Shown: positions 4,401 through 24,000 of the stretch, piece after piece
Layout: every line of letters starts with the position of its first letter
Numbering within the stretch: the stretch's first letter is position 1
Assembly: GCA_034430575.1 (NCBI GenBank)
Contig: DAOUDZ010000030.1
Span: 11,325-35,324, forward strand
Length of the DNA stretch: 24,000 nucleotides
Source: Dehalococcoidales bacterium
GTDB taxonomy: Bacteria > Chloroflexota > Dehalococcoidia > Dehalococcoidales > RBG-16-60-22
Reading direction: 5' to 3'
The notes under the pieces: model-generated
The model's input: only the letters and a program-made list of their open reading frames with translations
The model's database searches: none
Told to the model about the DNA's origin: nothing
Made by a program: the position numbers and the translations under genes

Positions 4401-4612
4401 AGGATCCAATCTCCCGCTTCGCTCTCGGTGGGAATATTTACCTTCATCCATTTGATTGCTTCGGGGGATGCTTCAGCCAGTGAGATAAAGCTGAAGGCGG
4501 CGAGTATTGATACAAGGATGAGTTTAACAAAAAGGATGCATAATTCCCGGGATAGCCTGCGAGGTAGCCTGTTATTTGCCATTCGGCGAATATATGCCGG
4601 CATAAAACCCAT
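1445..4612 (-). CDS. Large secreted cell-surface protein (1055 aa): signal peptide, BNR/Asp-box beta-propeller repeats, two FN3-like modules, Pro-rich stalk, C-terminal TM anchor (S-layer/envelope candidate)
   Basis: GAGGT sits 5 nt upstream of the ATG at 4612. Hydrophobic N-terminus ends ...SFISLAEA. Asp-box motifs (S-x-D-x-G-x-T-W): STDGGTGW, STNGGKTF, STDGGIGW, SRDIGETW, SRDGGNTW, STDDGQSY. Two modules end YYWRVRA and YYWKVRA. The tail is Pro-rich (PPAPPYPEG...QPPPATEPPPES), then the TM helix WIIYLVGGLLFTIVLSLIIIFTIVL and KIRRF. Confidence 0.85.
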   Translation of the reverse strand: MGFMPAYIRRMANNRLPRRLSRELCILFVKLILVSILAAFSFISLAEASPEAIKWMKVNIPTESEAGDWILADGSDVRHLTAALDGTLYASGHGLTYTLYKSTDGGTGWVHIGGVQDTIVDIAISPHDADRLYYATSSAIYSSTNGGKTFVQLPASPGGAGTDNLEITSIDVTWLNDDVIAVGTRDADSTEFGGVYTLNEANITPAWVDTNIGSYDVYAVAFSPNYAYDQQLVAIITDETDTYFAAKAGDASWSDTAGYARLDRDNSGVPTSVRVATPATIVFPDNYNADPASGSGSLFAAINTGTGEGDVYKINCADAPDTPIVTDLNIGLTYGYSNIDVGCLAARGDHPFIVLLAGAADSTRTYVSTDGGIGWSRSRKEPTGQSTTGALIAPDFTTTGRMYTTTSGDGSAISISRDIGETWNQVSMIDTTIDTIVDLAPSPGYGQDNTIFMLTFGNGHSLWRSRDGGNTWERTLAGNLAAVDSMSLVGLPPEYGDDCRALFVAGESNGSPAIWQSTDDGQSYRRRFTHDPTSGAEFYVDAWAIASETALFTGSYDGSHGMVYKSTNSGFIYSEGTPAGNQSLNSIAISPRYEKDGTVLVGNTSGRVFWSNDNCLSFESLPGNDTASHLTGSIAVAFDPEFDSNRTVYAADDDSDGEVYRFVIGSSTDWESIDGTLPDEAILNGLTVIDDGTLYAVNSDGDGGMERCLNPRYTLGPTFETVTRGLDDGATLSGLWQSGNRLWSTDTANVRLMTFFDTLTSPVTQVSPDDGAAGIGSLIDHTVRNIILDWETLDGATSYEWQCDGDTDLTSVPDGFEGNTSASSARLPSLDPAATYYWRVRASAPVTGPWSEKLSFTTSLDTEAIALKPESPAAGALNVPGKPLFQWTAVIGAEAYELLVSTDAGFGSPVIVRTDEYALPTNAWRCDVGLDYDTTYYWKVRAISASTHSPWSAAGVFTTESVPLANEPPAPPYPEGNITEITPSLTAATLPTIQSTPQIQPPPATEPPPESVTLPVPSQPLSIPGWIIYLVGGLLFTIVLSLIIIFTIVLKIRRF

Positions 4613-4765
4613 TGTTTACCTCTTAAAAGATGTTAATCTGCAAGACCGGGACTGATGTTGGGGATTTCAGCATTATCAATAATAATACATTTGACTACGG
4701 AAATGCTCGGTTTTATTCTAAAAAAACACTAAAAATTGGAGAAACCGGGATTACTATACTGTATG

Positions 4766-4795
4766 TTGAATAAGAGCAGATATGGAGTATATACT
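4766..4795 (+). promoter_or_regulatory. Candidate sigma70-type promoter for moeA
   Basis: TTGAAT (4766-4771), 18-nt spacer, TATACT (4790-4795). It lies ~30 nt upstream of the moeA ATG, which has GGAAGG 5 nt upstream. Confidence 0.35.
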
Positions 4796-4827
4796 AACAC
4801 AAGGACTCCTGATAATGGAAGGTAATC

Positions 4828-6093
4828 ATGGGAACGGACCATTACGAGATTGATGAAGGGACCGGCTATGTCGGTTACCGGGAAGCTTTTAGCCTTATAA
4901 CCTCGGATGTAAAGCCCGTAGGGATTGAAGAGCTATCGCTGGAATTGAGTGTCGACCGTATTGCGGCCGGGGATGTGGTGGCGCAGGTGAGTTATCCTTC
5001 AACGGATGTCTCGCTAAAAGACGGCTTTGCTGTAAAATCCGTTGATGTGGAGGCCGCATCGATGCAAAGTCCCGTATATCTCAAAGTCACCGGCTCTGTA
5101 TTCGCCGGCTCTAAGTTCGGCGGCGAGGTGAAACGGGGCAGCGCTGTCAAGATATGTTCCGGCGCGCCGATACCCCGTGGGGCAGATACCGTGGTCTCCG
5201 CAGAATTCTGCGACGAAATATCGCCGGAAGAGGTGCATGCTAAGGTCAATGCAGAGCCGGGGAGGAATATCCTCCGCGCCGGCGGAGAGGTAAAAGCGGG
5301 GGCGACCATTGTCGGCAGGGGCGGCAGACTTTTACCAGGCTACCTGGGTCTGGCGGCGGCGGCCGGCATCAACCGCGTCAGCGTTTACCGGCGGCCGGTA
5401 GTGGCCGTTGCGGGAATCGGTGATGAGGTAGTAGCGCCCGGGGAAGACTTAAGCCCCGGCCAGCTCTATGCCAGCAATCTGGTCACCATGGAGTCCTGGC
5501 TGGCTTCTTTCGGCATATCCTGCGTCACTTCGGTGGTCAATGATAGTGAGGAAGATATTAAGAATGAGTTGCGTAAAAACCTGCCGGATGTAGATGCTAT
5601 TCTAACCAGCGGCGGCGCCTGGGGCAGCGAGCGCGACCTTGTTGTCGGTTGCCTGAACCAGCTCGGCTGGCAGGAGATATTCCACCACGTGCGTATGGGG
5701 CCGGGTAAGGGTATCGCCTTCGGTCTATGGGAGGGCAAGCCCGTGTTTTGCCTCCCCGGCGGGCCGGCCAGCAACGAGATGGCTTTCCTGCAGCTTGCCC
5801 TGCCCGGAATACTGCGGATGAGCGGTGATACCAGGCATCCACTCCAGACTGTTACCGCCCGGCTTACCGAGGACCTGCAGACCCGCCACCTGGCGTGGAC
5901 GGAGTTCAAGGACGCCACGCTTTCCCGTGACACTGCGGGGAATTACAGGGTTGAGCTTTATAGAGACCGGAGCCGTTTACAGGCTATCGCCAGCGCCAAC
6001 AGCCTCGTCTGCATCCCGGAGGGCACGGAATCGTTGAAGAGCGGTGAGGCCGTCACCGTGCAGATACTGGCCCCCCGCCTTGACGATATATAA
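4828..6093 (+). CDS. moeA: Molybdopterin molybdenumtransferase MoeA
   Basis: The 421-aa product aligns by eye to MoeA along its length: SLKDGFAVKS (cf. S.MDGYAV), SGAPIPRGADTVV, RRPVVAVAGIGDEVV..G, ILTSGGAWGSERD, PGKGIAFG, VFCLPGGPASN. Confidence 0.85.
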   Translation: MGTDHYEIDEGTGYVGYREAFSLITSDVKPVGIEELSLELSVDRIAAGDVVAQVSYPSTDVSLKDGFAVKSVDVEAASMQSPVYLKVTGSVFAGSKFGGEVKRGSAVKICSGAPIPRGADTVVSAEFCDEISPEEVHAKVNAEPGRNILRAGGEVKAGATIVGRGGRLLPGYLGLAAAAGINRVSVYRRPVVAVAGIGDEVVAPGEDLSPGQLYASNLVTMESWLASFGISCVTSVVNDSEEDIKNELRKNLPDVDAILTSGGAWGSERDLVVGCLNQLGWQEIFHHVRMGPGKGIAFGLWEGKPVFCLPGGPASNEMAFLQLALPGILRMSGDTRHPLQTVTARLTEDLQTRHLAWTEFKDATLSRDTAGNYRVELYRDRSRLQAIASANSLVCIPEGTESLKSGEAVTVQILAPRLDDI

Positions 6094-6201: not shown

Positions 6202-9200
6202 TTAGACGGAACGTCTCGTCCTGACGATGAGGACAATTACCGCTATCACCAGGACAGCGCCGATGATGATTATCGCCCAGATGTATGCGGGAGCAATCTG
6301 CTCTGGCGCAGGTGCGGGCGGAATCTCAATGACGTTGGCCGGTGGTGCCGGCGGTATCTCGATTACCGGGGCCGGTACCTGCTCGATTACTACTGGTGCA
6401 GCAGGAGCAGGCGCTTCCTCGGCAATCATGAAGTTGGCAACGGTTGACCAGTCGCCATCAACCGGTTCCAGAGCTTTAACTCTCCAGAAGTAGGTTGTAC
6501 CTCTATCGAGCGCGGCGCTGGACAGGATGCCGGCACTCTCCAGCTGTTCGTCCATTAGGGTAGTTGCGAAGGCAGGGTCAGTAGACAACTGGAACTGGTA
6601 CATGGTCGCACCGGCTGCCGGTGTCCAGGAGAAGGCCGGGGTGGTGCTATCGATGGAACCGCCATTCTCCGGTGAGGCAATAGTCGGGACCGATGCCGCA
6701 GTGGGCTGGACAACGAAGCTTCGTGTCTCCGAGAATGCACTACCTATCGGAAGAGTAGCTGCTACTCTCCAGTAGTAGGTAGTGCCGGGCAGGAAAGTAC
6801 CACCGGCCTGAATCCGTGACACCGGGTCGTTAGCGTTGGGGAGTGCGACGGTGCCAACGGGAATCGGAGGAGCTACTACCAGCTCGGTGAAGCCGTCATC
6901 CAGCGCTATGAACAGGTCGTAGCCGGTAGCCAGGGATATCCGGTTCCAGGTGAAGTTGACGGCAGCAACGGCACCCGTTAACGGGCTGACGATATCGATG
7001 CGGTCGTTATCGGCCGGGCCTATCAGTGCAGGTCCGCCGAGAGCTACGGCATCATCGTAGTAGTAGACATTGGGGGTGCGAGGAGGATCACCCTGGTCAA
7101 CGGCGTATAGCATGATGCTGCCGGGTGCGCCGCCGCTTGTCTTCAGCGCCCAGAAATCGGTGAAGTCGAGGCCAGCCTCAACCCACTGGGTGCCCCAGAA
7201 AAAGGCGGGATGCACGGCTAGCGGAACGGTTGGCGCCAGCGTGCGGTTGAGGTAGGTGCTGGTAGCGCCGGCAGTCGCATCTGAAGATAGTACGTAGAGC
7301 ACGCCGTCGGTGTACGCTATGCCGGTAATTGCCTCAGCGGTGGCAGCACCTTGTGCGGGCGCGTTCATGTTCTTGAACTCACCCAGGAAGTTGGACGGGT
7401 CGAGTGAACAGCGCCAGACGGCTGGTACTGCGGCGCCGGTTTCAGCCGCGAAGACGTAGTCACTTGCGCCCAGACCGGAAGCGGCAACGTACACAGGCGT
7501 AAAGGTGTTTAAGACACCCAGGAGGGCTCTCCAGGTAGTGCCGCCATCGGCGGTATAGACCACACCACCCCAGGTGCCGCCAATGACCAGCTCGTTTTCA
7601 CCCAGGTTTGCCATGGAAAACGGGGTATTGGCGCCCGTCAGTCCGCAGTTCATGGGCAGGCTCCAGGTGAAGCCGGCGTTAACGGACTTGTATACGTTGA
7701 CAGTGGCGGGGTCGCCGATGTAGATAACCTGCGCGCTCTCTACCACGAGGTCAGCTATAGCAGCGATTGGAACGGAAGAGCGCTTATACCATCTACCCGT
7801 GCCGCCATCGGCCGAGTAGTAGATAACCGTGCCGGCCATGTCAGCGGCGTAGATGACGTCCTCGTCAGAATCGAGACCGCGTAGTATCAGGTTAAGTGCG
7901 CCTTTAAGCTCGCACAGCACCCTGGTTACGCCGAAATTGGACATGCGGTAGACGGAAGCTTTGGTTCCGTCTGTCGCTGCCAGGTACCATGTGTTACCTC
8001 CGGCAGTCATGTAGATGTCCTGGATGGTGGTAAGGGAGCTGTCCAGGAGGGAATAGTCGTTCCAGGTGTTACCGTAGTCGAGCGACTTGGAGATAGCCGA
8101 GCCATCGCCAATCTTGCCGCCGTACAGGGTCTCACCGTCGAACTTGAGGAGTACCGTATCGAAAGCGGCCGCGTCATCGATGCCGATTCTCTTCAGCGTG
8201 CGGGCCGGCAGGAAGGTGGGCGCTGTTGCCAGCGGGTCCGCCGAACGGAAAATGTTGTTGGTGAGATAGGCGCCAGCGGCCAGGTTCGTGCCGTCGAAGG
8301 CAACACTGGCGATATCCGTGCCCTGACCAAGAGTGGCCGAGCCGTATATCTTGACGGCGGGAGCGTTATCGTAGCAGCGCCAGATGCCGCCACTCGGGCC
8401 AGCAGTGGTGCCGTCAAGAATTGTTAAACCGGCGAAGGCGATACGCAGCGACTCGTCGCTGCCATCGTAGTCCGGCAACAGGGCTAGGTCCGCCTTGTTG
8501 ACGGTAATACCCGGGGTAGCTGCAGCAGAGCCGTTCTTGATGATTATCGGGTATAGGGTGGCAACTGCGGTATCCCAGGTGCGGGAGTTGAAGCTGAGGA
8601 TATGGTAGTCCACGGCACCAACGGCAGCGGTACCATTATCCACCAGGATAGCGGATGCCATCCAGTCGGACGGGAAGTTGGGAGAGAACTCGAAGGCTGC
8701 GACATCGTCATACGCGACAGCGGTGGCATGGACTACCGGGCCGGTGACGAAGTCAGTGGCAGCGGCAGCGTCGGTGGCATCTCTCCAGGCGCCCACGCCC
8801 GCGCCGTAGTTGTAGTAGAATACCGAGGCTGCACCGGCAGCGTCAGAACCGTAAGCGGCGATGTAGCGGACACCTCCGGTCACCATGGGCGAAATCGTCA
8901 CGCCGTTGAGAGCACCAGCGAGGTTAGTGCCGGTACCGTCCTGGATGAAGCCCATCGAGGTCCAGGAGGTACCGCCGTTGATAGTGATTGCGGCGCTCAG
9001 ACCGGCTGCGGGAGTAGCGTCAGCCACGACAACAACATTCGGGTCGTCGGGGGCTATCGCCACGTAGTCCGCGGTACCGATATCGGCGGGCATCCTCGTG
9101 GAGATATCGCTCCACCACCCACCGGCGTTATTACTTTGCATTACGGCCTGCGAAAAGGGAGCAGGGGCAACGCCGGTCACGGCATACATTGTCATGCCAT

Positions 9201-9390
9201 TGATATCGTAATCAGCGATGTTAGTGCCGGGTGCCAGCACTGCGAAAGGAATAGCAGCTGGTGTGTCAGCTACTTTCATTTCCCAGTTCAGCGGGTCGGC
9301 AGCGGAAGTCGGGACGGCGGCAATAAACAGGCTGGAAAGCAGCACTACTATCAGGCCAACGCCCCAGAATTTAGTTATGAATTTTTTCAT
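6202..9390 (-). CDS. Large secreted cell-surface protein (1062 aa), paralog of 1445-4612: signal peptide, BNR/Asp-box repeats, two FN3-like modules, Pro/Ala-rich repeat stalk, C-terminal TM anchor
   Basis: Signal peptide MKKFITKFWGVGLIVVLLSSLFIAAVPTSAADP. Asp-box-like motifs INGGTSW, SLDYGNTW, SADGGTGRW, SVNAGFTW, TADGGTTW. Modules end YYWRVAA and YFWRVKA. The stalk contains VIEIPPAPPANVIEIPPAPAP. TM helix YIWAIIIIGAVLVIAVIVLIV is followed by RTRRSV. AAGGAG lies 13 nt upstream of the ATG. Confidence 0.85.
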   Translation of the reverse strand: MKKFITKFWGVGLIVVLLSSLFIAAVPTSAADPLNWEMKVADTPAAIPFAVLAPGTNIADYDINGMTMYAVTGVAPAPFSQAVMQSNNAGGWWSDISTRMPADIGTADYVAIAPDDPNVVVVADATPAAGLSAAITINGGTSWTSMGFIQDGTGTNLAGALNGVTISPMVTGGVRYIAAYGSDAAGAASVFYYNYGAGVGAWRDATDAAAATDFVTGPVVHATAVAYDDVAAFEFSPNFPSDWMASAILVDNGTAAVGAVDYHILSFNSRTWDTAVATLYPIIIKNGSAAATPGITVNKADLALLPDYDGSDESLRIAFAGLTILDGTTAGPSGGIWRCYDNAPAVKIYGSATLGQGTDIASVAFDGTNLAAGAYLTNNIFRSADPLATAPTFLPARTLKRIGIDDAAAFDTVLLKFDGETLYGGKIGDGSAISKSLDYGNTWNDYSLLDSSLTTIQDIYMTAGGNTWYLAATDGTKASVYRMSNFGVTRVLCELKGALNLILRGLDSDEDVIYAADMAGTVIYYSADGGTGRWYKRSSVPIAAIADLVVESAQVIYIGDPATVNVYKSVNAGFTWSLPMNCGLTGANTPFSMANLGENELVIGGTWGGVVYTADGGTTWRALLGVLNTFTPVYVAASGLGASDYVFAAETGAAVPAVWRCSLDPSNFLGEFKNMNAPAQGAATAEAITGIAYTDGVLYVLSSDATAGATSTYLNRTLAPTVPLAVHPAFFWGTQWVEAGLDFTDFWALKTSGGAPGSIMLYAVDQGDPPRTPNVYYYDDAVALGGPALIGPADNDRIDIVSPLTGAVAAVNFTWNRISLATGYDLFIALDDGFTELVVAPPIPVGTVALPNANDPVSRIQAGGTFLPGTTYYWRVAATLPIGSAFSETRSFVVQPTAASVPTIASPENGGSIDSTTPAFSWTPAAGATMYQFQLSTDPAFATTLMDEQLESAGILSSAALDRGTTYFWRVKALEPVDGDWSTVANFMIAEEAPAPAAPVVIEQVPAPVIEIPPAPPANVIEIPPAPAPEQIAPAYIWAIIIIGAVLVIAVIVLIVRTRRSV

Positions 9391-9599
9391 CGAATTTTAT
9401 TTTCTCCTTAAGGTCTTTGTGTTTATTTGAATATGCTATATCCCCGCAAACAGGCAATCGACTTTTATTTTTCTTGTTTGCAGAGATACATTCCCTTAGA
9501 AGCGATCATCAGAGAAACTGGCTCTGTCTCCCCTTGCGGGCTATAGTCATCGCATCACCTCCTTCCGTGCGTACCAACAACAAGGTACACTTCAATATA

Positions 9600-9627
9600 A
9601 CTATAGCATATGCTCGTTGTTTGTCAA
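9600..9627 (-). promoter_or_regulatory. Candidate sigma70-type promoter for the 6202-9390 surface-protein gene, implying a ~200-nt 5' leader
   Basis: The minus strand reads TTGACA (9627-9622), a 16-nt spacer, then TATAGT (9605-9600). This is the only strong -35/-10 pair I found in the 360-bp intergenic region. Confidence 0.45.
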
Positions 9628-9751
9628 GCCTTTCATACGGTAAATTAACATAAATTCATAAAAATCGCACGATTTGCAGTTCTTGACCGGCTTTTATCCG
9701 TTTATTATAACGTAAAACTCGTGAAAAGGATAGCAAGAAGATGTTAAATAA

Positions 9752-11008
9752 TTATGAAGATGCAGTCAGCCGCTCCGCCAGTTTGCCGATTGCCACCGTC
9801 TCCTGCCGGGCGTTGGCCATGTCCCGCAGGACCGCCGTGCCGGCTTTCACCTCTTCATCGCCGATTATCACCGTATAACCCACCCCGAGGGAGTTTGCCT
9901 GCCTCATCTGGGCCTTGAGGCTTTTACCGCCGGTGGTGGTCGCCGCGCTGACGCCCGCCTGCCTCAAGACGGCGGCCAGCCTTATCGCTTCTTCCCTGGC
10001 GGCGTCACCCAGGTAAGCGATGAGCACCTGCAGCACGGGTGAACCGGGCACTTCAACCCCCTCTTTCTTGAGATTGAGGATTATCCGCTCGATTCCCGCC
10101 GCAAAACCGATGGCCGGCGTGGGCTTGCCGCCCAGCTCCTCGATGAGGTCGTCGTACCTGCCGCCTCCCCCCAGCGTGCTCTGGGCGCCCTCTTCATCCG
10201 GCTGGATTTCAAAAACGGTACGGGTGTAGTAGTCCAGGCCGCGTACCAGGTGGTGATTAAGCTCGAAAGGAATTTTGAGCAGTCCCAGGTATCCCTGCAG
10301 TTTACTGAAATGCTCGTCGCACTCCGCGCAGAGGTGACCGACGCTCTTCGGGGCGGACGCCGCTATCTCACGGCATGACGCCTGCTTGCAGTCCAGGAGG
10401 CGCAGCGTATTCTTCTCCAGCCGCGTTTTACAATCGGCGCAAAGCCGGTCGACGTAACCTGCATAGTAGTCTTTAAGCGCGGCAAGATAGCCGGGACGGC
10501 ACTGCCGGCAGCCGATGCTGTTGAGCTGCAGCGAAAGTCCGGTCAGACCGAGCGACCTGTAGAATTGCCAGGCCATGTCTATTACCTCGGCGTCGAGGGC
10601 GGGGTCGGCCTCACCGATGGTCTCGTAGCCGAACTGGTAGTGCTGGCGGTAGCGGCCTGCCTGGGGACGGTCGTAGCGGAAGATGGGTGAGACATAGTAC
10701 AGCTTGACCGGCCGGGGCAGGTTCTGGAGGCCGTGCTGAATGTAGGCACGGCAAACCGGCGGAGTCCCCTCCGCTTTCAGTGTCAGGCTGTTGCCCCCGC
10801 GGTCGTCGAAGGTGTACATCTCTTTCTGGACGATGTCGGTGTACTCGCCGGTACCCCGTCGGAAAAGGCCGGTATCCTCGAAAACCGGCGTATCGATACG
10901 GTTGTACCCGTATAATCGGCTGATTTCGGCGATTCCCCGCTCGATATAGCGCCAGTAGGGTTGCTCCTCCGGGAGGATATCTGTTGTCCCGCGTACGTTC
11001 TGGTACAA
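9752..11008 (-). CDS. hisS: Histidine--tRNA ligase
   Basis: 418 aa with class II aaRS / HisRS motifs: RGTTDILPEE, FRYDRPQAGRYRQHYQFG, GGGGRYD, and a C-terminal anticodon-binding domain. The start codon is TTG (11008-11006). Confidence 0.93.
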   Translation of the reverse strand: MYQNVRGTTDILPEEQPYWRYIERGIAEISRLYGYNRIDTPVFEDTGLFRRGTGEYTDIVQKEMYTFDDRGGNSLTLKAEGTPPVCRAYIQHGLQNLPRPVKLYYVSPIFRYDRPQAGRYRQHYQFGYETIGEADPALDAEVIDMAWQFYRSLGLTGLSLQLNSIGCRQCRPGYLAALKDYYAGYVDRLCADCKTRLEKNTLRLLDCKQASCREIAASAPKSVGHLCAECDEHFSKLQGYLGLLKIPFELNHHLVRGLDYYTRTVFEIQPDEEGAQSTLGGGGRYDDLIEELGGKPTPAIGFAAGIERIILNLKKEGVEVPGSPVLQVLIAYLGDAAREEAIRLAAVLRQAGVSAATTTGGKSLKAQMRQANSLGVGYTVIIGDEEVKAGTAVLRDMANARQETVAIGKLAERLTASS

Positions 11009-11382
11009 TCTATCCCATTGCCTTTCTTGACATTTAGTGTCATTTCAGCGGAAGCTGGAATCCAGTCGGGGGGATAAGGGGACCAGATTCTCGGGTCAAG
11101 CCCGAGAATGACATTGTTATTTGGTTTCTTAAGGCTAGAATACAGGATTAACGCCGTATTTGTAAAGGGAGGGATATTTTTAAGATGTGAACCCTTCGGC
11201 CCCCAACATTTCTTATCTTTTCCCACCCTGCCGCCCTCGTATCATCGACGGCTTATCCCGTAGGATATACCCCCTCCCCTCATTTTACACACCTCCCCTT
11301 TTGGGATATACTGAAAATATATTGCTACCTTATATTATTAAAGGAGAAAGAACTCCCGGGTTCTGGCTTACGGTGCGGTGTA

Positions 11383-13596
11383 ATGGAATTCAGTAGACTG
11401 CTGGAAAAGGCCGCGGAATATATCCCGCCGGAGAAACTTTCCGTTGTAGAGAAAGCCTATGAATTCGCCGCTGAAAAGCACGCAGGACAGGTGCGTCTTT
11501 CCGGGGGTCCTTATCTGGACCACCCCTTGCAGACGGCCTATATCCTCGCCGAGCTTCAGTTCGATGCCGGCACCCTGGCGGCAGCCCTCCTGCACGATAT
11601 CCCGGAAGACACTGGCCTGCCCATAGAAGATATCAAAGCTAAATTCGGACCGGAGATAGCCAAACTGGTCGACGGCGCCACCAAGCTGGGCAAGGTTTCG
11701 CTGGTTACCACCGGCACCGGAGCCAGCGCGTCACAGGCGGAAAACTTGAGGAAGATGCTGGTGGCCATGGCCGAAGACCTTCGGGTGGTCTTCATCAAAT
11801 TGGCCGACCGACTTCACAATATGCGTACCCTGGACGCCCTGCCCAAGGACCGGCAGCTCGTTAACGCCCAGGAAACCCTGGAGATATACGCGCCGCTGGC
11901 GCACCGACTGGGAATATGGGAGCTTAAGTGGCAGCTGGAAGACCTTTCCTTTCAGTATTTACAGCCCCAGCAGTACCAGCGTATCGCCCGCCTGGTGGAT
12001 ACCGGACGCGCCAGGCGAGAGAAATTTATAGTCCGCGCCATTGAGCTTCTGAAGAAAGAGTTCGATAAGGTGGGCCTGGTCGCGGATATATCCGGTCGAC
12101 CCAAGCATATCTACAGCATACACCAGAAAATGGAAAGATACGCCGCTATGGGCCGGCACTTCGACGAGATATACGACCTTCTCGCCCTGCGAGTGCTCGT
12201 CGACGGCGTGCCCGAATGCTACAGCGCCGTCGGCGTCATCCACAGTCTGTGGCATCCCCTGCCCGACGCCTTTGACGATTATATAGCCAGTCCCAAGCCG
12301 AACGGCTATCAGGCGCTGCATACCGCGATAATGGTTCCCGGCACCACACCATTGGAAATTCAAATTCGCACCCGCGAGATGCACCATGTCGCCGAGTATG
12401 GCGTGGCCGCCCACTGGCGCTATAAAGAGGGCGAAAAGAGGGATATGCAGTTCGAGGACAGGGTGGCCTGGTTGCGCCAGCTTATCGAGTGGCACCGCGA
12501 GCTCGCCGGCGCCGAGGAATTTCTGGAGTCGGTCAAGACCGACATCTTTATCGACCAGGTTTTCGTTTATACCCCGAAAGGAGAGATAAAGGACCTGCCC
12601 CGTGGTTCCACGCCGCTCGATTTCGCCTACCGCGTCCATACGGACGTGGGACACCGCTGCGTTGGGGCCAAGGTAAACGGCAAGCTGGTTCCCTTTAGCT
12701 ATCAGCTCAAGAACGGGGACGTTATCGAGATTATCTCGGCGAAGGCCCCAAGGGGGCCGAGTCTGGACTGGCTCAACCCCAATCTGGGGTATGTCAACAC
12801 CTCACACGCCAAAACCAAGATAAGGCAGTGGTTCAATAAGCAGGAGCGGACGGAGAACATCGAGCGCGGCCGGCAGATTCTGGATAAAGAACTGCGGCGA
12901 CTTGGAATAAAGACCGAGCGCCAGATGCTGGCCGAGCTTTTTGCTTACAGCAGTTTGGACGACTTTCTGGCGGCGGTCGGCAATGGCACCGTCACCGCCC
13001 ATCAGATTGTCCTGAAACTGGCGGCGCAGGAGGAAAAAGAGATACCGTTGACTGCGGTCGCCCCGTCCCGGACAGCGCCGTCAACGGTACAGGTGCTGGG
13101 GGTCGGTGACCTGGTAACGAATATCGCCCCGTGCTGCCATCCCGTCCCCGGCGATAAGATAATCGGCTATATTACACGGAGTCGCGGCGTCACCATCCAC
13201 CGCGAGGACTGCCGCAATATCCGCCATGAAGATGAAAAGGAGAGGCTGATACCGGTGGAGTGGGGGCAGAGCGATGAACTCCTTTATCCGGTCAATGTAC
13301 AGGTAGAGGCCTGGGACAGGGTAGGCCTCATGCGCGATGTTACCACAGTGGTGGCCGAGGAGAAAGTGAATATCGCCTCGGTAAGCCTCACCGAGGGTGA
13401 CGGAAACACCATTACCATGTTTTTAACTCTGGAGACTAAGGGGCTGGCGCATTTAAGCCGGATTTTAAAAAAGATAGATGCCGTAAAAGGCGTGCTTAGC
13501 GTTACCCGCATCGGTGACGACGCATCCAGGCAGGGTGCCGCCGATTCCCCGGTTCCGTTAACCAGGGCCGAAGACAACGGCTCGGGTAAAAAATAA
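11383..13596 (+). CDS. relA: Bifunctional (p)ppGpp synthetase/hydrolase (RelA/SpoT homolog, long RSH)
   Basis: 737 aa. HD hydrolase motifs (HPLQTA, LLHDIPEDT, DRLHNMRTL). Synthetase motifs (PKHIYSIHQKM, DLLALRVLV, GYQALHT, EIQIRT..MH). TGS region (VFVYTPKGEIKDLPRGSTPLDFAY) and a C-terminal ACT-like domain. Confidence 0.93.
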   Translation: MEFSRLLEKAAEYIPPEKLSVVEKAYEFAAEKHAGQVRLSGGPYLDHPLQTAYILAELQFDAGTLAAALLHDIPEDTGLPIEDIKAKFGPEIAKLVDGATKLGKVSLVTTGTGASASQAENLRKMLVAMAEDLRVVFIKLADRLHNMRTLDALPKDRQLVNAQETLEIYAPLAHRLGIWELKWQLEDLSFQYLQPQQYQRIARLVDTGRARREKFIVRAIELLKKEFDKVGLVADISGRPKHIYSIHQKMERYAAMGRHFDEIYDLLALRVLVDGVPECYSAVGVIHSLWHPLPDAFDDYIASPKPNGYQALHTAIMVPGTTPLEIQIRTREMHHVAEYGVAAHWRYKEGEKRDMQFEDRVAWLRQLIEWHRELAGAEEFLESVKTDIFIDQVFVYTPKGEIKDLPRGSTPLDFAYRVHTDVGHRCVGAKVNGKLVPFSYQLKNGDVIEIISAKAPRGPSLDWLNPNLGYVNTSHAKTKIRQWFNKQERTENIERGRQILDKELRRLGIKTERQMLAELFAYSSLDDFLAAVGNGTVTAHQIVLKLAAQEEKEIPLTAVAPSRTAPSTVQVLGVGDLVTNIAPCCHPVPGDKIIGYITRSRGVTIHREDCRNIRHEDEKERLIPVEWGQSDELLYPVNVQVEAWDRVGLMRDVTTVVAEEKVNIASVSLTEGDGNTITMFLTLETKGLAHLSRILKKIDAVKGVLSVTRIGDDASRQGAADSPVPLTRAEDNGSGKK

Positions 13597-15315: not shown

Positions 15316-15690
15316 TTACGTCCCTACGGCCTGCGTAACTACTGTACTTGCACCTAAAACGGAAAAATATACCAGGAGCACGTTTCCAAGAGTTACGAGT
15401 CCTTTCTGGATTTTTTGATTCCAGGTCGTTTTCTGCTCCGGTTGTGTCGCGAAAGCGAACGCCACGATAATTATCACGGTAAATAACAGAGGCCACGCTT
15501 CGCCTGCGAAGGTAGTCCCCCAGAGGCGTTTAAAAAGTGCCCAGATACCGCTGATCAGGAAACAGGCGCCGGCGAACGTCCCCAGGGTAGCCCACGTGTA
15601 AAAGCGCTTGCCGACATTGGCTATCGGTCTTTCTGACTTCTGAGAGTCTCCGTCTTCCGGCGCTCTCTCTTGTTCTGGTTGAACGTTCAT
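15316..15690 (-). CDS. Hypothetical integral membrane protein (~124 aa, about 3 TM segments)
   Basis: Track ORF 15316-15696. I prefer the ATG at 15690, preceded by GGGGGGTGGGT. A charged N-terminus is followed by hydrophobic stretches: WATLGTFAGACFLISGIWALF, WPLLFTVIIIVAFAFA, LVTLGNVLLVYFSVLGASTVV. I recognise no family. Confidence 0.5.
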   Translation of the reverse strand: MNVQPEQERAPEDGDSQKSERPIANVGKRFYTWATLGTFAGACFLISGIWALFKRLWGTTFAGEAWPLLFTVIIIVAFAFATQPEQKTTWNQKIQKGLVTLGNVLLVYFSVLGASTVVTQAVGT

Positions 15691-15717
15691 ACCCACCCCC
15701 CTATGTTAATAATAGGA

Positions 15718-16601: not shown

Positions 16602-16605
<4 letters not shown>
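15811..16605 (-). CDS. pyrK: Dihydroorotate dehydrogenase electron-transfer subunit (FAD/[2Fe-2S])
   Basis: Track ORF 15811-16713. The start is moved to the ATG at 16605, giving [17 protein letters not shown]... It overlaps the carB stop in an ATGA junction. Motifs: [19 protein letters not shown], and the C-terminal cluster CGMGVCYGC...VCKDGPVF. Confidence 0.85.
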
Positions 16606-19839
<3,234 letters not shown>

Positions 19840-19856
<17 letters not shown>

Positions 19857-20619
19857 AGTCTTCCTTTTTAATTTCTTTTTTTACACACCATTCATTTATC
19901 CAACACGGTTCACATAGTTTTTTATCATACATGCAGAAGTTGTGACCTACAAACCAGAGATTATCTAGGGTTATAGGAGGTAGATTTTCTCCCATTATTG
20001 CTTCTTTTAATTCCTTTTGAAGTTGATTATATTCTTTATTTATCTCATGGTTTTTATCATAGTAAGAGAAATTTGGTCGTTTGAGTACGTCCCTTTCATT
20101 TTTTTTATCTTTTCCCCATGAAAATAGTTTGTTATACTTCTTAGTACCTACTGCTAGATGTGGATACCATAACAACTCTAATACCCACCGGTCTAAAGGA
20201 ACGTGTAGATACTCTTTCCATAATGGGAAATCCAAGCCGTCTATTTTAAATTCTTTGGAAAAATTAACTAAATGTTTTATATAGAGATTGGCTATTTTCT
20301 GATTAATCTGTGGAATTGTACATAACCAATCTAAGAATGATTTATGTTGTTCTTCAGGGCTTTTCCCCCGATACATGCAAATTCTATCTTTTATATCTTT
20401 GTTAAATATATCGTAGGCTGCTTCACTGTTAGCTTTACTTGCTCCTGCCCTTGCTTTGGTCTCTGCATAGAATATCCTTTTCATCTTATCAATTGAAGAC
20501 GCGTTCTTTACTCGATGGGATATTTGAGAGCGATAGTACGTCATTATGTCCTCATCGTGGTTATATAGTTCTTGTGCTACTTCTCTGAGTTTAGTGACAT
20601 CTTTTATGTAAGTTGTCAT
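19840..20619 (-). CDS. Orphan HhH-GPD/endonuclease III-like protein with C-terminal [4Fe-4S] cluster-loop motif (putative DNA glycosylase), 259 aa
   Basis: A 780-nt ORF in ~33% GC DNA, where random stops are frequent. AAAGGAGGG lies 8 nt upstream of the ATG. C-terminus: [25 protein letters not shown], i.e. C229-X6-C236-X2-C239-X5-C245 (DNA 19885-19935). Compare E. coli Nth [47 protein letters not shown] resembles the Nth HhH LEALPGVGRKTANVVLNTA, with the Lys retained. [11 protein letters not shown] resembles the catalytic-Asp segment AVDTHIFRV. The last 17 nt overlap the carB start. Confidence 0.6.
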
Positions 20620-20683
20620 TTTGCTACCCTCCTTTATTCATCCATCTTCTTTTCCTCACCCCCTTTGTTTAAATCCCTCTCGG

Positions 20684-20704
20684 TCTCCCTTTATTAAAGG
20701 GAGA
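20684..20704. repeat. Palindrome related to the 38-bp repeat core, spanning the DUF559 stop codon
   Basis: TCTCCCTTTA-t-TAAAGGGAGA is a 10-bp-arm palindrome. It has the same TC(C/T)CCCTTT...AAAGGG(G/A)GA design as the hairpin in the 38-bp repeats. Confidence 0.6.
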
Positions 20705-21122
20705 AGCTATTATGTATCCCTCTTCGTTTCCAAGTTTCCCCCTTTGAAAAAGGGGGACTAAGGGGGATTTTTCCAGAGATTTCTCCTTCGATTTTCTCCA
20801 AAACCCCCTTCATATTCTTTAACACATCGCTATTGGTGAACCTCAATACTCTCAAACCAAGGCTGCTCAAGTAATCATCCCTTATCCTGTCATATTCCAT
20901 CTTCTCACCAACGAGGTGGTGACTGCCGTCGATTTCAATAGCCAGCTTTGCCTTCGGGCAATAAAAATCCACGATGTAATCCCCAATGGGTTTCTGTCGA
21001 TAGAAAATCAATCCTTTAACTTGTTTCATCCTTATCTTCCACCAGAGACGCTTTTCGGCATCTGTCATATTATCTCTGAGTTGCTGCGCAAATTGTTTCA
21101 GGTTTTCATTGTAAGGTAGCAT
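20694..21122 (-). CDS. DUF559 endonuclease-domain protein (Vsr-like PD-(D/E)xK fold), 142 aa
   Basis: QLRDNMTDAEKRLWWKIRMKQVKGLIFYRQKPIGDYIVDFYCPKAKLAIEIDGSHH...YDRIRDDYLSSLGLRVLRFTNSDV matches the DUF559 consensus (T.aE..LW..LR......FRRQ...G.YIvDF.c....l.iE.DG..H....D..R...L...G..VlRf.n.dv). The last ~25 aa (IPLSPPFSKGE...) are encoded by the flanking repeat. Confidence 0.85.
   Translation of the reverse strand: MLPYNENLKQFAQQLRDNMTDAEKRLWWKIRMKQVKGLIFYRQKPIGDYIVDFYCPKAKLAIEIDGSHHLVGEKMEYDRIRDDYLSSLGLRVLRFTNSDVLKNMKGVLEKIEGEISGKIPLSPPFSKGETWKRRGIHNSFSL
20733..20770. repeat. 38-bp direct repeat, copy 1 (hairpin-containing), inside the 3' end of the DUF559 ORF
   Basis: AGTTTCCCCCTTTGAAAAAGGGGGACTAAGGGGGATTT is identical to 21147-21184. 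It contains the hairpin CCCCCTTT-gaa-AAAGGGGG. Confidence 0.9.
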
Positions 21123-21146
21123 TATTGCCCCTATAACCCCTTTTTC

Positions 21147-21184
21147 AGTTTCCCCCTTTGAAAAAGGGGGACTAAGGGGGATTT
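21147..21184. repeat. 38-bp direct repeat, copy 2, between the DUF559 start and the carA stop
   Basis: A perfect 38/38 match to 20733-20770, 414 bp away. Its last 2 nt overlap the carA stop codon (21183-21185). Confidence 0.9.
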
Positions 21185-22271
21185 ACTTCTCCATACTCTC
21201 CACGAACTTCCTGAACAGGTACACGTTGTCCAGCGGCCCCGGCGACGCCTCGGAGTGGTACTGGATGGAAAAGACCGGCAGCTCTTTGTGGCGCAGGCCT
21301 TCCACGGTATTATCGTTCAGGTTGATATGCGTCACCTCGAGCTCTTTCCCTATCGTATCGGGGTCGACGGCGTAGCCGTGGTTCTGGGCGGTGATGTGAA
21401 TGCTGCCCGTGGATAAGTCCCGCACCGGGTGGTTGCCGCCGCGGTGGCCGAACTTGAGCTTGAAGCACTTGCCCCCGTAAGCGCGGGCGATGAGCTGGTT
21501 GCCCAGGCAGATGCCCATGACCGGCTTCCTGCCAATGAGTTTTCTCACCTCCGCCACGATGTAATCAAGCAGGGCGGGGTCGCCCGGCCCCGGCGACAGG
21601 AGAATGCCATCGGGTTCTAGTTGTAAAATATCCTCCGCAGAAGTTGTGCAGGGGACGACGGTAGCGCGGCAGCCGTGCTTTGCCAGCAGGCGTAAAATGT
21701 TGTATTTCAGCCCGCAGTCCAGCGCGACCACGTGGTACATGGCTTTAGCGCCGTTTTTCCACTCGTAAGACTTTTCCGTGGTAACCTCGCGAACGAAGTC
21801 GATTTCCCCGTAGTCGGGCGCGTTTTTGATTGCCTCTAAAGCCTCGGCGGGCGTTTTCGACGTTGTAATCATGCCCATCATGACCCCCGCCGAGCGCAGT
21901 CGACGGGTGATGGCGCGGGTATCCACGCCCCATATTCCGGGGATGCCGCTCTCCGCCAGGTAGGCGTGGATGGCCTTGTTGTTAAGGTAGTGGCTGGGCC
22001 GGTCGCACTCCTCCCTGACGACGAATCCCTTGACCTGTATCCGCCTCGACTCATCGTCCTCGTCGTTGGTGCCGTAGTTGCCGATGAGGGGGTAGGTGGG
22101 GATTAAAATCTGGCCGGCATAGGAGGGGTCGGTAAGCATTTCCTGGTAGCCGGCCATGCTGGTATTAAAGACCGCCTCCCCGACCGTATCCGTCTCCGCC
22201 CCGAAGGCGTAGCCTTCGTACACCGAGCTGTCCGCCAGCACCAGTATCGCCGCTTTAGCCACTTTCTTCAC
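21183..22271 (-). CDS. carA: Carbamoyl-phosphate synthase small (glutaminase) subunit
   Basis: 362 aa. N-terminal LVLADSSVYEGYAFGA. The GATase triad region has GICLGNQL, FGHRGGNHPV and the IQYHSEASPGP motif. GTG start at 22271 (alternative GTG at 22262). Confidence 0.93.
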   Translation of the reverse strand: MKKVAKAAILVLADSSVYEGYAFGAETDTVGEAVFNTSMAGYQEMLTDPSYAGQILIPTYPLIGNYGTNDEDDESRRIQVKGFVVREECDRPSHYLNNKAIHAYLAESGIPGIWGVDTRAITRRLRSAGVMMGMITTSKTPAEALEAIKNAPDYGEIDFVREVTTEKSYEWKNGAKAMYHVVALDCGLKYNILRLLAKHGCRATVVPCTTSAEDILQLEPDGILLSPGPGDPALLDYIVAEVRKLIGRKPVMGICLGNQLIARAYGGKCFKLKFGHRGGNHPVRDLSTGSIHITAQNHGYAVDPDTIGKELEVTHINLNDNTVEGLRHKELPVFSIQYHSEASPGPLDNVYLFRKFVESMEK

Positions 22272-23574
22272 TCGTTTCTATTTTCAAAGATTCGTCCATG
22301 TAGACCGGATTGCCCGTGTAAATCGTCGCCATCACCTTGCCCTTGAGCGTCTGGCCGTCCAGCGGGGTGTTTTTCCCCCTGGAGACGAACGTGCTGGTAT
22401 CGACCACCCACTCTTTATGAAGGTCGAAGATGGTGATATCCGCCGGCGCACCATTTTGAAGCGTGCCCAGCTTTTCGTAGCCCAGAATGCGCGCCGGGCC
22501 GACGGTCAGCGCGGCGATGAGGGTGTTCAGGCTCAGCTCGCTGTTTAAAATCAGCCCGACCAGGCTGCCCAGCGCCGTCTCGAAGCCGCTGATGCCGAAA
22601 GCCGCCTGTGTGAACTCGCAGTTCTTATCGGCCTCGGTGTGAGGGGCGTGGTCCGTAGCCACGATATCGATAACGCTGTCGTTCAACGCCCGCAGCAGGG
22701 CCAGCGTGTCCCGCTTCGTCCGCAGGGGAGGGTTCACCTTGGCGTAAGTTTTATATTTCAATACCGCTTCCTCGGTGAGGGTGAGGTGGTGGGGGGTAAC
22801 CTCCGCAGTTACGTGTACGCCCTCTTCCTTGGCGGCGCGGATAAGCTCCACCGAGCCTTCCGTGCTGACGTGGGCGATGTGTATGTGACCGCCGGTCTCG
22901 CGGGCAAGGTCGAGGTCGCGCTGGACGATTAACTCCTCGGCGGTAGCCGGTATGCCGCGCAGTCCCAGTTCCAGAGAGACGACGCCCTCGTTTATCTGGC
23001 CGCCCTGGGTCAGAAAGAGATTCTCGCAGTGGTCGATTATCGGCCGGTTAAAGTCGCGACTGTACTCAAGTGCCCGGCGCATGGCTTCGTTGCTGACCAC
23101 CGGCGAGCCGTCGTCGCTGTAGGCAATCACCCCGGCCATTTCCAGCTCGCTCATATCTACCAGTTCCTCGCCTTTGCGGCCGACGGTAACACAGCCAATC
23201 GGCAGCACGCGGATAGGGCTTTCGTTGGTCGCTACCGTTTTCACGTAGCTTATCATCGATTCGTTGTCCAGGGGAGGGTTGGTATTGGGCATGCAGCAGA
23301 CGGTGGTAAATCCGCCCCGCGCCGCCGCCCGCGTCCCCGTGGCGATGGTCTCCTTTTCCTCGTCGCCCGGCTGCCGCAGGTGGCAATGAAAGTCGATAAA
23401 ACCGGGGCAGACAATCAGGCCTTCGGCGTTAAGTACGGCATAATCCACATCGGGCGGTATGCCCTCTCCGAGCCAGGCGATTTTTCCCTCTTTGATGAGC
23501 AGGTTGCCGGTCTTATCGATGTCCTGGCCGGGGTCGATGATGCGGCCGCCCCGTATCAGTAAAGCGTTTGCCAT
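22255..23574 (-). CDS. pyrC: Dihydroorotase
   Basis: Track ORF 22255-23652. The start is moved to the ATG at 23574 (MANALLIRGGRIIDP...), with GGGAGGA upstream and 4 nt after the preceding stop. Motifs: PGFIDFHCHLRQPG, GGFTTV, HIAHVST, ATDHAPH. Confidence 0.9.
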   Translation of the reverse strand: MANALLIRGGRIIDPGQDIDKTGNLLIKEGKIAWLGEGIPPDVDYAVLNAEGLIVCPGFIDFHCHLRQPGDEEKETIATGTRAAARGGFTTVCCMPNTNPPLDNESMISYVKTVATNESPIRVLPIGCVTVGRKGEELVDMSELEMAGVIAYSDDGSPVVSNEAMRRALEYSRDFNRPIIDHCENLFLTQGGQINEGVVSLELGLRGIPATAEELIVQRDLDLARETGGHIHIAHVSTEGSVELIRAAKEEGVHVTAEVTPHHLTLTEEAVLKYKTYAKVNPPLRTKRDTLALLRALNDSVIDIVATDHAPHTEADKNCEFTQAAFGISGFETALGSLVGLILNSELSLNTLIAALTVGPARILGYEKLGTLQNGAPADITIFDLHKEWVVDTSTFVSRGKNTPLDGQTLKGKVMATIYTGNPVYMDESLKIETSEESG

Positions 23575-23578
23575 TTCT

Positions 23579-24000
23579 CTAGTAATTTCCTCCCGTGAAG
23601 TGACTGGGCTTGTAGCCGTGGGCCTGCGCTTCCTCCGCCGTGTTGAATACAATCAGGTTCTCCGGTCGGATGGTCCTGGCCCAGTGGCTGTCCGCGTCGT
23701 GGTATTTCTTGGTGTCCAGCTTGCCTTCATGCCATTCGGTGCTGGCCACGAATTTCGGCTCGAAGCCGTGTTCGCAATAGACGCACCGCAGTGTCAGGGG
23801 CTGTATTTTCACTATCCTGAACTCGGGCTTGATATACTTCGTTTCGGTAGCCTGAATAGACACGCATTTAGGATTGGGGCACGCGGGGCTTATGTCATGG
23901 CGGTAGACGGGGTAGTCCGCCGTAGGAGGCGAATCCGCCTCCGGGATATCGATATCCCCGGCGCCCAGCAGGAGTGAGATAAGAGCCATCCTGACCGGTA
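23579..24000 (-). CDS. pyrB: 3' part of an aspartate carbamoyltransferase gene: PyrB C-terminus fused to a PyrI-type zinc domain plus an extra ~55-aa tail; ORF is open to the window edge
   Basis: The frame stays open upstream of the track's ATG (23989), reading ...PVRMALISLLLGAG, which resembles the PyrB C-terminal helix. CPNPKCVSIQATETKYIKPEFRIVKIQPLTLRCVYCEHGF matches the PyrI Zn domain (E. coli [37 protein letters not shown]). No PyrI allosteric domain is visible between them. Confidence 0.6.
   Translation of the reverse strand, partial: PVRMALISLLLGAGDIDIPEADSPPTADYPVYRHDISPACPNPKCVSIQATETKYIKPEFRIVKIQPLTLRCVYCEHGFEPKFVASTEWHEGKLDTKKYHDADSHWARTIRPENLIVFNTAEEAQAHGYKPSHFTGGNY

Follow-up and report, generated by a model that had tools for sequence, protein, structure and literature searches.

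A variable one-gene slot beside a conserved DUF559 nuclease gene, between carA and carB of a Dehalococcoidales pyrimidine operon, with a candidate defence glycosylase as cargo

A stretch of 24,000 nucleotides (nt) from a Dehalococcoidales bacterium (GenBank assembly GCA_034430575.1, contig DAOUDZ010000030.1, positions 11,325 to 35,324 of the forward strand), hereafter the window, was analysed for the two genes that lie in its pyrimidine operon between carA and carB. One codes for a DUF559 nuclease of 142 amino acids (aa) and the other, orf259, for a 259-aa protein of a rare family. Comparison with related loci (numbered with the prefix L) revealed that the carA-carB region is, very likely, a hotspot of two modules: a conserved anchor, consisting of the DUF559 gene and its palindromic repeats, and a hypervariable slot for one gene, which is occupied by orf259 in the window. 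The explanation favoured here, and considered somewhat probable, is a defence hotspot in an essential pyrimidine operon whose present cargo codes for a candidate defence DNA glycosylase. Positions of all features are given in Table 1.

Analysis of base composition revealed a low-GC stretch of 1.33 kb between the carA stop codon and the carB ATG, with two open reading frames (ORFs) that are co-oriented with the operon. The G+C content (GC) of this island (19857-21182) is 0.374, compared with 0.596 for carA and 0.607 for carB, and the profile falls from about 0.60 to 0.32-0.44 precisely from the carA stop to the carB start. Within the island, GC is 0.42 for the DUF559 ORF and 0.337 for orf259; at third codon positions (GC3) it is 0.80 for carA, 0.79 for carB, 0.51 for the DUF559 gene and 0.31 for orf259. 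The overlap between orf259 and carB is 17 nt, and the first 17 nt of carB are thus inside orf259. The original prediction, made from the window alone, is borne out here: a low-GC insert of foreign composition lies inside the operon with two co-oriented ORFs, the second of which contains the carB Shine-Dalgarno (SD) sequence, and no methyltransferase, integrase or transposase is present among the genes of the 24-kb window. Its premise that carA and carB are normally adjacent holds outside Chloroflexota, where the gap is <100 bp in 12 of 14 loci, and fails in this phylum, where 27 of the 39 loci holding both genes have a gap of >200 bp. An occupied carA-carB junction is therefore common in this class. 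By its carA, for which the best match in the GTDB species set is 84% identical, the organism is an uncultured Dehalococcoidales/Dehalococcoidaceae bacterium.

At least six independent contigs, assembled from several JGI metagenomes and by Logan, have the carA-carB junction in unchanged form, and hence it is not an assembly artefact. An assembly chimera, or contaminant DNA joined between carA and carB, would be in keeping with the abrupt GC drop right at the gene borders; its probability is nevertheless taken to be negligible, given that the identical junction comes from different samples and assemblers, that homologous architecture recurs across many independent metagenome-assembled genomes and that the ORFs are in frame and coupled to carB.

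Comparison with the closest relatives identified the borders of the slot. By blastn, the homology of L120 and L121 to the window extends from carA to 20633 (86%) and resumes at 19850 (90-93%); that of L117 and L118 extends to 20671 and resumes at 19852. The non-homologous piece between these breakpoints is just orf259 and its own SD. The island, which had been predicted as one insert that alignment of related junctions might find absent, is thus absent only in part, as the DUF559 portion is present in these relatives and orf259 is not. In relatives with flanks that are 86-90% identical, the slot holds a gene for 146 aa (L117/L118), 249 aa (L119) or 154 aa (L120/L121), and at least 10 kinds of cargo occur across the clade. 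A search of all gap ORFs and six-frame fragments of relatives with the hidden Markov model of the orf259 family found no hidden family members, so that none of the remaining cargo genes is a relative of orf259. As a separate observation, two related populations from the same JGI sample (3300031651), L117 and L001, have flanks that are 87-89% identical and the same DUF559 anchor, with cargo of 146 aa and 259 aa, respectively.

Cargo genes at this junction are all low in GC (0.33-0.46), and those that are recognisable are mostly of defence type (TIR/PDC-S35, HEPN, AbiU2 and Schlafen AlbA_2), as a listing of domains rather than an enrichment statistic. The closest GTDB relative, L007 (carA 84%), carries a gene for a TIR protein (Pfam CAP12-PCTIR_TIR 6e-14; PADLOC PDC-S35 6e-16) followed by a GIY-YIG gene. 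A homologous TIR protein follows DUF559 in L014, and in L009 it follows a DUF5640 lipoprotein and DUF559. In L119, DUF559 is followed by Hypoth_Ymh/HEPN (PADLOC Aga_HEPN 8.5e-18, PD-Lambda-3_B 5.5e-15), and in L121 by a multi-pass membrane protein (weak 8xMP). The junction of L019 holds a repeat element and then HEPN AbiU2; L024 holds Schlafen AlbA_2 and then RNase_H_2; L013 holds a pair that is HicA/HicB-like, as judged by sequence appearance alone, and then others; the cargo of L018 and L117 has no recognised identity. In L007 (3714-4246), 62 nt of the carB 5' end are present on either side of the GIY-YIG gene (3830-4207), at 3714-3775 and 4185-4246 (89% identical); the gene is inserted at the carB start, and an intact carB is retained.

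Unlike the cargo, module 1 is stable. Analysis of DUF559 homologues of 72-88% identity revealed that all six looked up are located in pyr operons. The closest proteins (86-88% identity; L117-L121) are encoded directly after carA and are followed by a differing gene and then carB; a 78%-identical homologue lies between carA and carB alongside two further genes (L123). Compared with relatives, the DUF559 gene has a nonsynonymous rate (dN) of 0.06 and a ratio to the synonymous rate (dN/dS) of 0.06-0.10, and carA and carB have a dN/dS of 0.09-0.16 (the L014 carA row was excluded). DUF559 with its palindromes is a conserved, vertically inherited anchor that is under purifying selection and diverges in step with carA and carB. 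The conserved core of the gene spans 20772-21122; its last ~25 codons are supplied by repeats A2 and B, and in L121 the ORF ends ahead of the repeats. A DUF559 gene of 72% identity, found in L124 (3501-3896, in a contig of 798 kb) and in L125, has pyrC and pyrK as its neighbours, and carA and carB are missing from this place in the operon; the nuclease remains with the pyr operon there although carAB is gone.

The predicted membership of the nuclease in DUF559 was confirmed (PF04480, 121.2 bits against a cut-off of 20.6, E 2.2e-35; residues 7-114 on profile positions 2-107 of 109). Among the DUF559/Vsr-fold PD-(D/E)xK nucleases (PDB 3HRL, Vsr and the cleavage domains of PvuRts1I and AbaSI), the likeness lies in this clear PF04480 membership and in similarity to 3HRL (E 4e-20). 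The score against NCBIfam PRK09767 (75.6 bits) is under the equivalog cut-off of 218, and weak PHROG matches are to families labelled HNH or homing endonuclease. Identity with Vsr proper was rejected, as the protein differs from Vsr in having no PF03852 match at E<=1 and no methyltransferase is present in the 24-kb window. The family is large, with 2,488 clusters at E<1e-20 to the 142-aa protein alone. Stand-alone DUF559 proteins have, to our knowledge, no known function, and the titles and abstracts of the DUF559 papers listed in a literature search mention neither mobility nor repeats nor a fixed association with palindromic repeats in a pyr operon. The anchor described here thus provides a concrete and testable context for a large orphan family.

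The palindromes of the anchor are nearly invariant. Each copy of repeat A contains the palindrome TCCCCCTTT-N3-AAAGGGGGA, and A2 and B together form a palindromic element of ~100 nt (RNA fold -41.4 kcal/mol, z -2.3). The 36-nt core of repeat A is identical (36/36) in both copies of the window, L120 and L121, while the surroundings differ by 13-15%; zero change in 72 nt at 14% divergence has a chance of ~2e-5, so repeat A is constrained or homogenised. L019 and L045 have the A-B element but no DUF559. In L045 (5808-6001), an array of A/B palindromic elements with no protein gene fills the pyrC-carA spacer, and the A/B repeat family hence also occupies other junctions of the pyr operon. Every A/B match in 1.04 Mb of loci falls at a pyr-operon junction, in loci nearly all chosen around pyr genes. 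Viral contigs contain no copy of repeat A, and the A/B repeats are not represented by any Rfam family.

Several known roles were considered for these repeats and rejected. Their hairpins, which resemble CCGAGAGGGA, are not PyrR attenuator sites, as RF00515 gave no match in 19700-21300 even at E<=1 and does detect the true site upstream of the L014 operon (55.5 bits). They are not integron attC sites, as there is no GTT triplet and hence no GTTRRRY core, and no IntI is present in the window; no recombinase of any kind was found in the window or within ~4-6 kb of flank at related junction loci. As intrinsic terminators or internal promoters they were also rejected: the coding strand has no terminator-like site and promoter-like matches are not above chance, which makes read-through into carB plausible. 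At their 5' junction, unrelated cargo genes share at least one C-run/G-run hairpin followed by (A/G)AGGGGGTGAGGTAGA a few bases ahead of the ATG, and the GGGGGTGAGG motif does not occur in native adjacent carA-carB junctions. A mini-ORF (ATG GAT GAA TAA; with its upstream motif, window 20634-20663) lies directly upstream of the SD of orf259 itself; this mini-ORF might be left over from the start of an earlier cargo gene, or might serve in translational coupling.

Table 1. Features of the carA-carB junction and of the surrounding pyrimidine operon (window positions; a dot marks features without strand)
Feature	Position	Strand	Remarks
pyrB/pyrI fusion		-	pyrimidine operon; truncated by window end
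pyrC	22255-23652	-	pyrimidine operon
carA (carbamoyl-phosphate synthase small subunit)	21183-22271	-	Pfam CPSase_sm_chain 2e-51, GATase 6e-52; conserved left flank of the hotspot
carA stop codon	21183-21185	-	
Module 1: DUF559 gene with bracketing repeats	20670-21184		
Repeat A1, 38 nt	21147-21184	.	contains palindrome; begins at carA stop codon; 38/38 direct repeat of A2, chance expectation 0
DUF559 nuclease gene, 142 aa	20694-21122	-	PF04480
Repeat A2, second 38-nt copy	20733-20770	.	
Repeat B, diverged inverted copy of A	20670-20708	.	79% complementary to A over 39 nt
GGGGGTGAGG motif, SD-like	20654-20663	-	conserved upstream of unrelated cargo genes (junction comparison)
Mini-ORF, 3 codons	20634-20645		at SD-like spacing after the GGGGGTGAGG motif
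Module 2: variable single-gene slot	19853-20632	-	no homology to closest relatives
orf259 SD AAGGAGGG	20627-20634	-	
orf259, cargo gene, 259 aa	19840-20619	-	rare family; EndoIII-like HhH-Lys/Asp/4-Cys motifs
carB SD AAGGAAG	19860-19866	-	within 3' end of orf259
carB	16602-19856	-	strongly conserved 5' end is right border of slot
pyrK		-	member of the pyrimidine operon of the window

An exhaustive phmmer search identified only 39 clusters of the orf259 family among 1.84 billion representatives. A word-indexed protein search found orf259 itself only, and two proteins when the family alignment was used; phmmer against PDB sequences gave spurious ClpP matches only. No member of the family was found in viral contigs, plasmids or phages. 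A Pfam scan of 25 family members found a weak HHH match in one (E 0.05), weak DUF2400 matches in three and HhH-GPD or EndIII_4Fe-2S in none. The family alignment has three conserved blocks, LCxIPGxxQKTANLFLK, YLHVPLDxWVLRLL and LDxLWFVGxxFC-x6/7-C-x2-CW-x4-C. Residues Q107, K108 and D143 are conserved at >=90%, P141 and V146 are invariant, and W145 and several other tryptophans are conserved. In the loop of iron-sulfur (Fe-S) type, C229-x6-C236-x2-C239-x5-C245, C239 is invariant and the other three cysteines are conserved at >=90%.

These blocks are collinear with the motifs of EndoIII and MutY. Comparison of the family by hhalign with an alignment of four sequences (E. coli nth, E. coli mutY and two Dehalococcoidia nth) gave Prob 81% and E 1.2e-5 over 99 columns. 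K108 was paired with Nth K120 (LPGVGRKTAN; family GxxQKTANLFLK and Nth GVGRKTANVVL), D143 with D138 (VPLDRWV and IAVDTHI; family VPLDxWVLRLL and AVDTHIFRVCN) and the C-terminal C-x6-C-x2-C-x5-C loop with Nth 187-203. Against Nth alone, the FeS loop only was aligned, and the family profile matched EndoIII among PDB sequences at E 0.2-0.3, at the helix-hairpin-helix (HhH) and FeS positions, which is suggestive only. Differences from EndoIII and MutY are the missing HhH-GPD and EndIII_4Fe-2S matches, ~95 unaligned N-terminal residues, an insert of 13 residues between the HhH and the aspartic acid and one of ~36 residues before the FeS loop. The AlphaFold2 model of orf259 reached a mean confidence (pLDDT) of 88.9 with the family alignment and 40 from the single sequence. 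Its top Foldseek matches in PDB and BFVD, none of them significant (E >=2), were to HhH-glycosylase folds, namely OGG1, Tag and an amino-acid:DNA transferase from a phage; the transferase is described as having a glycosylase-like HhH fold (PMC8989533). Overall, these alignments suggest that orf259 is probably an enzyme of EndoIII type; its family is divergent, with a non-alignable N-terminal third and two insertions. The predicted EndoIII-like FeS identity is thus upheld by three collinear motifs and the hhalign result, and not by any Pfam model.

The locations of orf259 relatives differ with their distance from it. Closer family members (35-52% identity) are found at the carA-carB site again, and the next gene downstream is nearly always carB or a remnant of its 5' end. 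In L087-89 and L091-93, the family gene lies between carA and carB without DUF559, and in L091 it overlaps both; in L095 it lies directly before carB. In L090 (1020-1147) and L096 (1100-1190), from two independent metagenomes, the first 14 codons of carB come after the family gene and run into pyrK-like sequence, and in L098 (1330-1400) it lies after pyrC and is followed by a degenerate 21-codon carB 5' remnant. Such remnants reflect either loss of carAB at the hotspot or cassettes that bring the carB 5' end with them. Distant members (30-38% identity) are found in other variable regions. In L103 (1148-4900), a restriction-modification (R-M) locus, the member is directly downstream of a BpuJI-like restriction endonuclease and a C5-methyltransferase::Vsr fusion. 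Other members lie beside a BglI-like restriction endonuclease and an N4/N6 methyltransferase (L100), before a PLD/NgoFVII-like nuclease (L101) or after HerA, DruA and an HSDR_N-like gene (L102 and L104), and one adjoins a large serine recombinase (L097).

On the explanation favoured here, module 1 is inherited vertically with carA and carB and kept by selection, and module 2 is bordered on the left by the repeat/SD module and on the right by the carB start codon. The product of orf259 would be a bifunctional DNA glycosylase/AP-lyase with a [4Fe-4S] cluster, as K108, D143 and the four cysteines suggest, and would attack modified or foreign DNA in defence, as Dag does, rather than repair T:G mismatches of the host. 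Both island genes and carB would be transcribed by read-through from the operon promoter, and translation of carB would be coupled to that of orf259 through the overlap. Exchange of cargo might follow the transfer of DNA among related strains, by homologous recombination at the conserved borders, and breaks made by the resident DUF559 nuclease might, speculatively, stimulate the exchange. Campbell-type insertion of a circle with short homology would leave duplications such as the 38-80 nt of A/B and the 62 nt of the carB 5' end, and the remnants of the carB 5' end next to family genes in other loci point to use of the same border. That exchange proceeds by recombination in this manner is put forward tentatively. 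The defence role of orf259, which is argued by analogy, is regarded as possible, at slightly under even chances; distant members beside R-M and defence genes and sister slots with defence-type cargo count for it.

Several results weigh against this explanation. The adjacency of the closer subfamily to carB could reflect a role linked to carB or pyrimidines, or site-specific homing, and not defence. No model in Pfam, NCBIfam, PADLOC or PHROG matched orf259, with only a marginal 13-bit score in PADLOC 2023, a release older than the Dag proteins, and several cargo genes of the slot (146 aa, 274 aa and 159 aa) have no recognisable defence domain. Slots without DUF559 (L007, L019 and L087) vary too, which leaves a role of the nuclease in exchange as speculation. 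The activity, expression and anti-phage effect of orf259 are predictions.

The original prediction had placed both genes in one horizontally acquired cassette, in which a glycosylase of EndoIII or Mig type and the Vsr-fold DUF559 nuclease would cooperate on T:G mismatches or in DNA surveillance. Both proteins have DNA-acting folds, both genes are low in GC and adjacent, and the distant member in L103 directly follows a C5-methylase::Vsr fusion. Their histories are separate, however: DUF559 and its repeats are kept in 6/6 close homologues looked up and track the flanks, and only orf259 varies, being replaced by unrelated genes in the closest relatives. Family members occur at the same junction without DUF559 (L087 and L091), DUF559 accompanies at least six other cargo genes besides orf259, and GC3 differs between the two. 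No second pairing of DUF559 with an orf259-family gene was found, although co-occurrence elsewhere had been expected of such a cassette. The claim of one cassette is thus contradicted by the distribution of the two genes, and that of a T:G-mismatch duo is not supported, as the window offers no methyltransferase and the L103 locus is the only link; this locus keeps a connection with base modification alive and does not support the pairing. What survives of the proposed two-gene defence module is the plausibility of defence, and cooperation of the two genes is given a very slim chance. A low-GC island with two DNA enzymes should accordingly not be taken as one system before relatives are checked. 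Another reading is selfish homing, in which DUF559, the GIY-YIG of L007 and perhaps orf259 would be free-standing genes of homing-endonuclease type that target the palindrome or the carB 5' end and persist by cutting empty alleles, with no need of a benefit to the host. It fits the small nuclease genes flanked by local duplications (38-80 nt of A/B around DUF559 in the window and L014, and the carB 5' duplicate around GIY-YIG in L007), the carB 5' remnants in L090/L096 and L098, the near-constant abutment of the closer subfamily on carB, the PHROG labels of DUF559 and a target that is essential and highly conserved, as is typical for homing. Yet DUF559 has resided vertically for long under strong purifying selection, with no sign of invasion and decay, and its close homologues are all at one locus and not scattered; the motifs of orf259 are of glycosylase and not of nuclease type, and many cargo genes (TIR, HEPN, membrane protein) are not nucleases. 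Homing is therefore considered unlikely.

A housekeeping function, with orf259 as a repair glycosylase (for uracil or oxidised pyrimidines) tied to pyrimidine synthesis and DUF559 as a functional member of the operon, would account for the six lineages that place a family member directly before carB, for the overlaps in L091, for the retention of DUF559 in a pyr operon without carAB (L124) and for the intact and constrained appearance of both genes. The extreme rarity of the orf259 family and its absence from most relatives with the same operon speak against this, as do the TIR, HEPN and Abi genes in the same slot of sister genomes and the presence of distant members in R-M and defence loci rather than in pyr operons. 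The GC3 of orf259 (0.31 against 0.80) also argues against long residence, and the housekeeping function is judged to be improbable. A bolder form of the favoured explanation is that DUF559 and the palindromes on the left and the first ~60 nt of carB on the right together make up a docking site that is dedicated to cargo and needs no integrase. Defence genes would arrive there one at a time, as small circles with a short homology, by Campbell-type insertion, stimulated by DUF559 cuts, and the essential, constitutively needed operon would guarantee their expression and make deletion costly. This form is regarded as rather unlikely, by a little more so than homing; if true, the docking site would be a nuclease-driven functional analogue of the integron.

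Comparison of the proposed defence hotspot with known systems identified likenesses and differences. Defence islands or hotspots flanked by core genes, and integron arrays, likewise have conserved flanks around rapidly exchanged, low-GC single genes of defence type, co-oriented cargo with an upstream promoter (by presumed read-through here) and a repeat or hairpin before each cargo gene. The carA-carB slot differs in its place, which separates the genes for the two subunits of a single enzyme within a biosynthetic operon that is essential, in its probable translational coupling to carB and in usually holding one gene; it differs from integron arrays in having no integrase or attC-like site. 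In PeSL-type modular shuffling in T4-like phages, a short conserved regulatory stem-loop and SD similarly precede each unrelated ORF, and free-standing homing endonucleases resemble DUF559 and GIY-YIG in lying beside conserved genes with local sequence duplicated around them. The differences are that the present system is on a bacterial chromosome, that its nuclease is stably inherited and under selection, and that its circular intermediates are hypothetical. The Mig gene adjoins an R-M system, and some distant members of the orf259 family resemble Mig.MthI, the R-M-linked T:G glycosylase, in this respect; the difference is that no methyltransferase lies near orf259.

Dag proteins, single-gene integron-cassette glycosylases of the HhH superfamily with a Lys-Asp pair, destroy 7-deazaguanine-modified phage DNA (bioRxiv 10.1101/2025.10.29.685425), and Brig1 is a further precedent for glycosylase defence (PMC11078745). 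Dag proteins (in Vibrio integron cassettes) are like orf259 in being HhH-type proteins of low identity that are encoded by single-gene, promoterless, exchangeable cassettes. The Lys-Asp pair and aromatic stacking residues of Dag, compared by description, have counterparts in K108, D143 and the several tryptophans of the orf259 family. The platform of orf259 differs in not being an integron and in its host order, Dehalococcoidales, and the defence role of orf259 is a predicted one. Neither 'iron-sulfur' nor '4Fe-4S' is mentioned in the Dag paper. If the docking-site reading is true, orf259 would be the first of the defence glycosylases with an iron-sulfur cluster. With 39 clusters in all, a rare HhH/Fe-S family thus joins the candidates for glycosylase-based immunity. 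Hotspots of defence genes between core genes, integron defence cassettes and HhH defence glycosylases are already known. No prior description was found of a site where single genes are swapped in an essential operon, here at the carA-carB junction and without a recombinase, of its permanent DUF559-plus-palindrome neighbour or of a rare Fe-S HhH cargo. The arrangement suggests another route by which bacteria with small genomes, such as Dehalococcoidia, may keep and swap immunity genes.

The remaining genes of the window are of housekeeping type (hisS, relA/spoT, moeA and flavodoxin), together with two for large secreted proteins. A 1062-aa ORF (6202-9390) and a 126-aa ORF (15316-15696) have no Pfam match. 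GC also dips in intergenic segments at ~4500-4950, 9300-9900 and 11100-11400, none of which contains a palindrome of A/B type. In the C-terminal part of the pyrB/pyrI fusion (23579-23989), past the PyrI zinc domain, a weak match to the Ada zinc-binding domain was seen (E 1e-3, below the cut-off). A different gene occupies the carA-carB gap in another set of loci: a conserved ORF of 138 aa (MSSFSMVLLEGGVDVEV...) is present in L027 (7241-7657) and in ~14 other Dehalococcoidia loci (L030, L033, L035-L037, L039, L041-L043, L046, L050, L052 and L071). These gaps are near host-like in GC (0.49-0.60) and the ORF has no Pfam or PADLOC match; possibly, another clade of Dehalococcoidia has here a real gene of the pyr operon that has escaped recognition.

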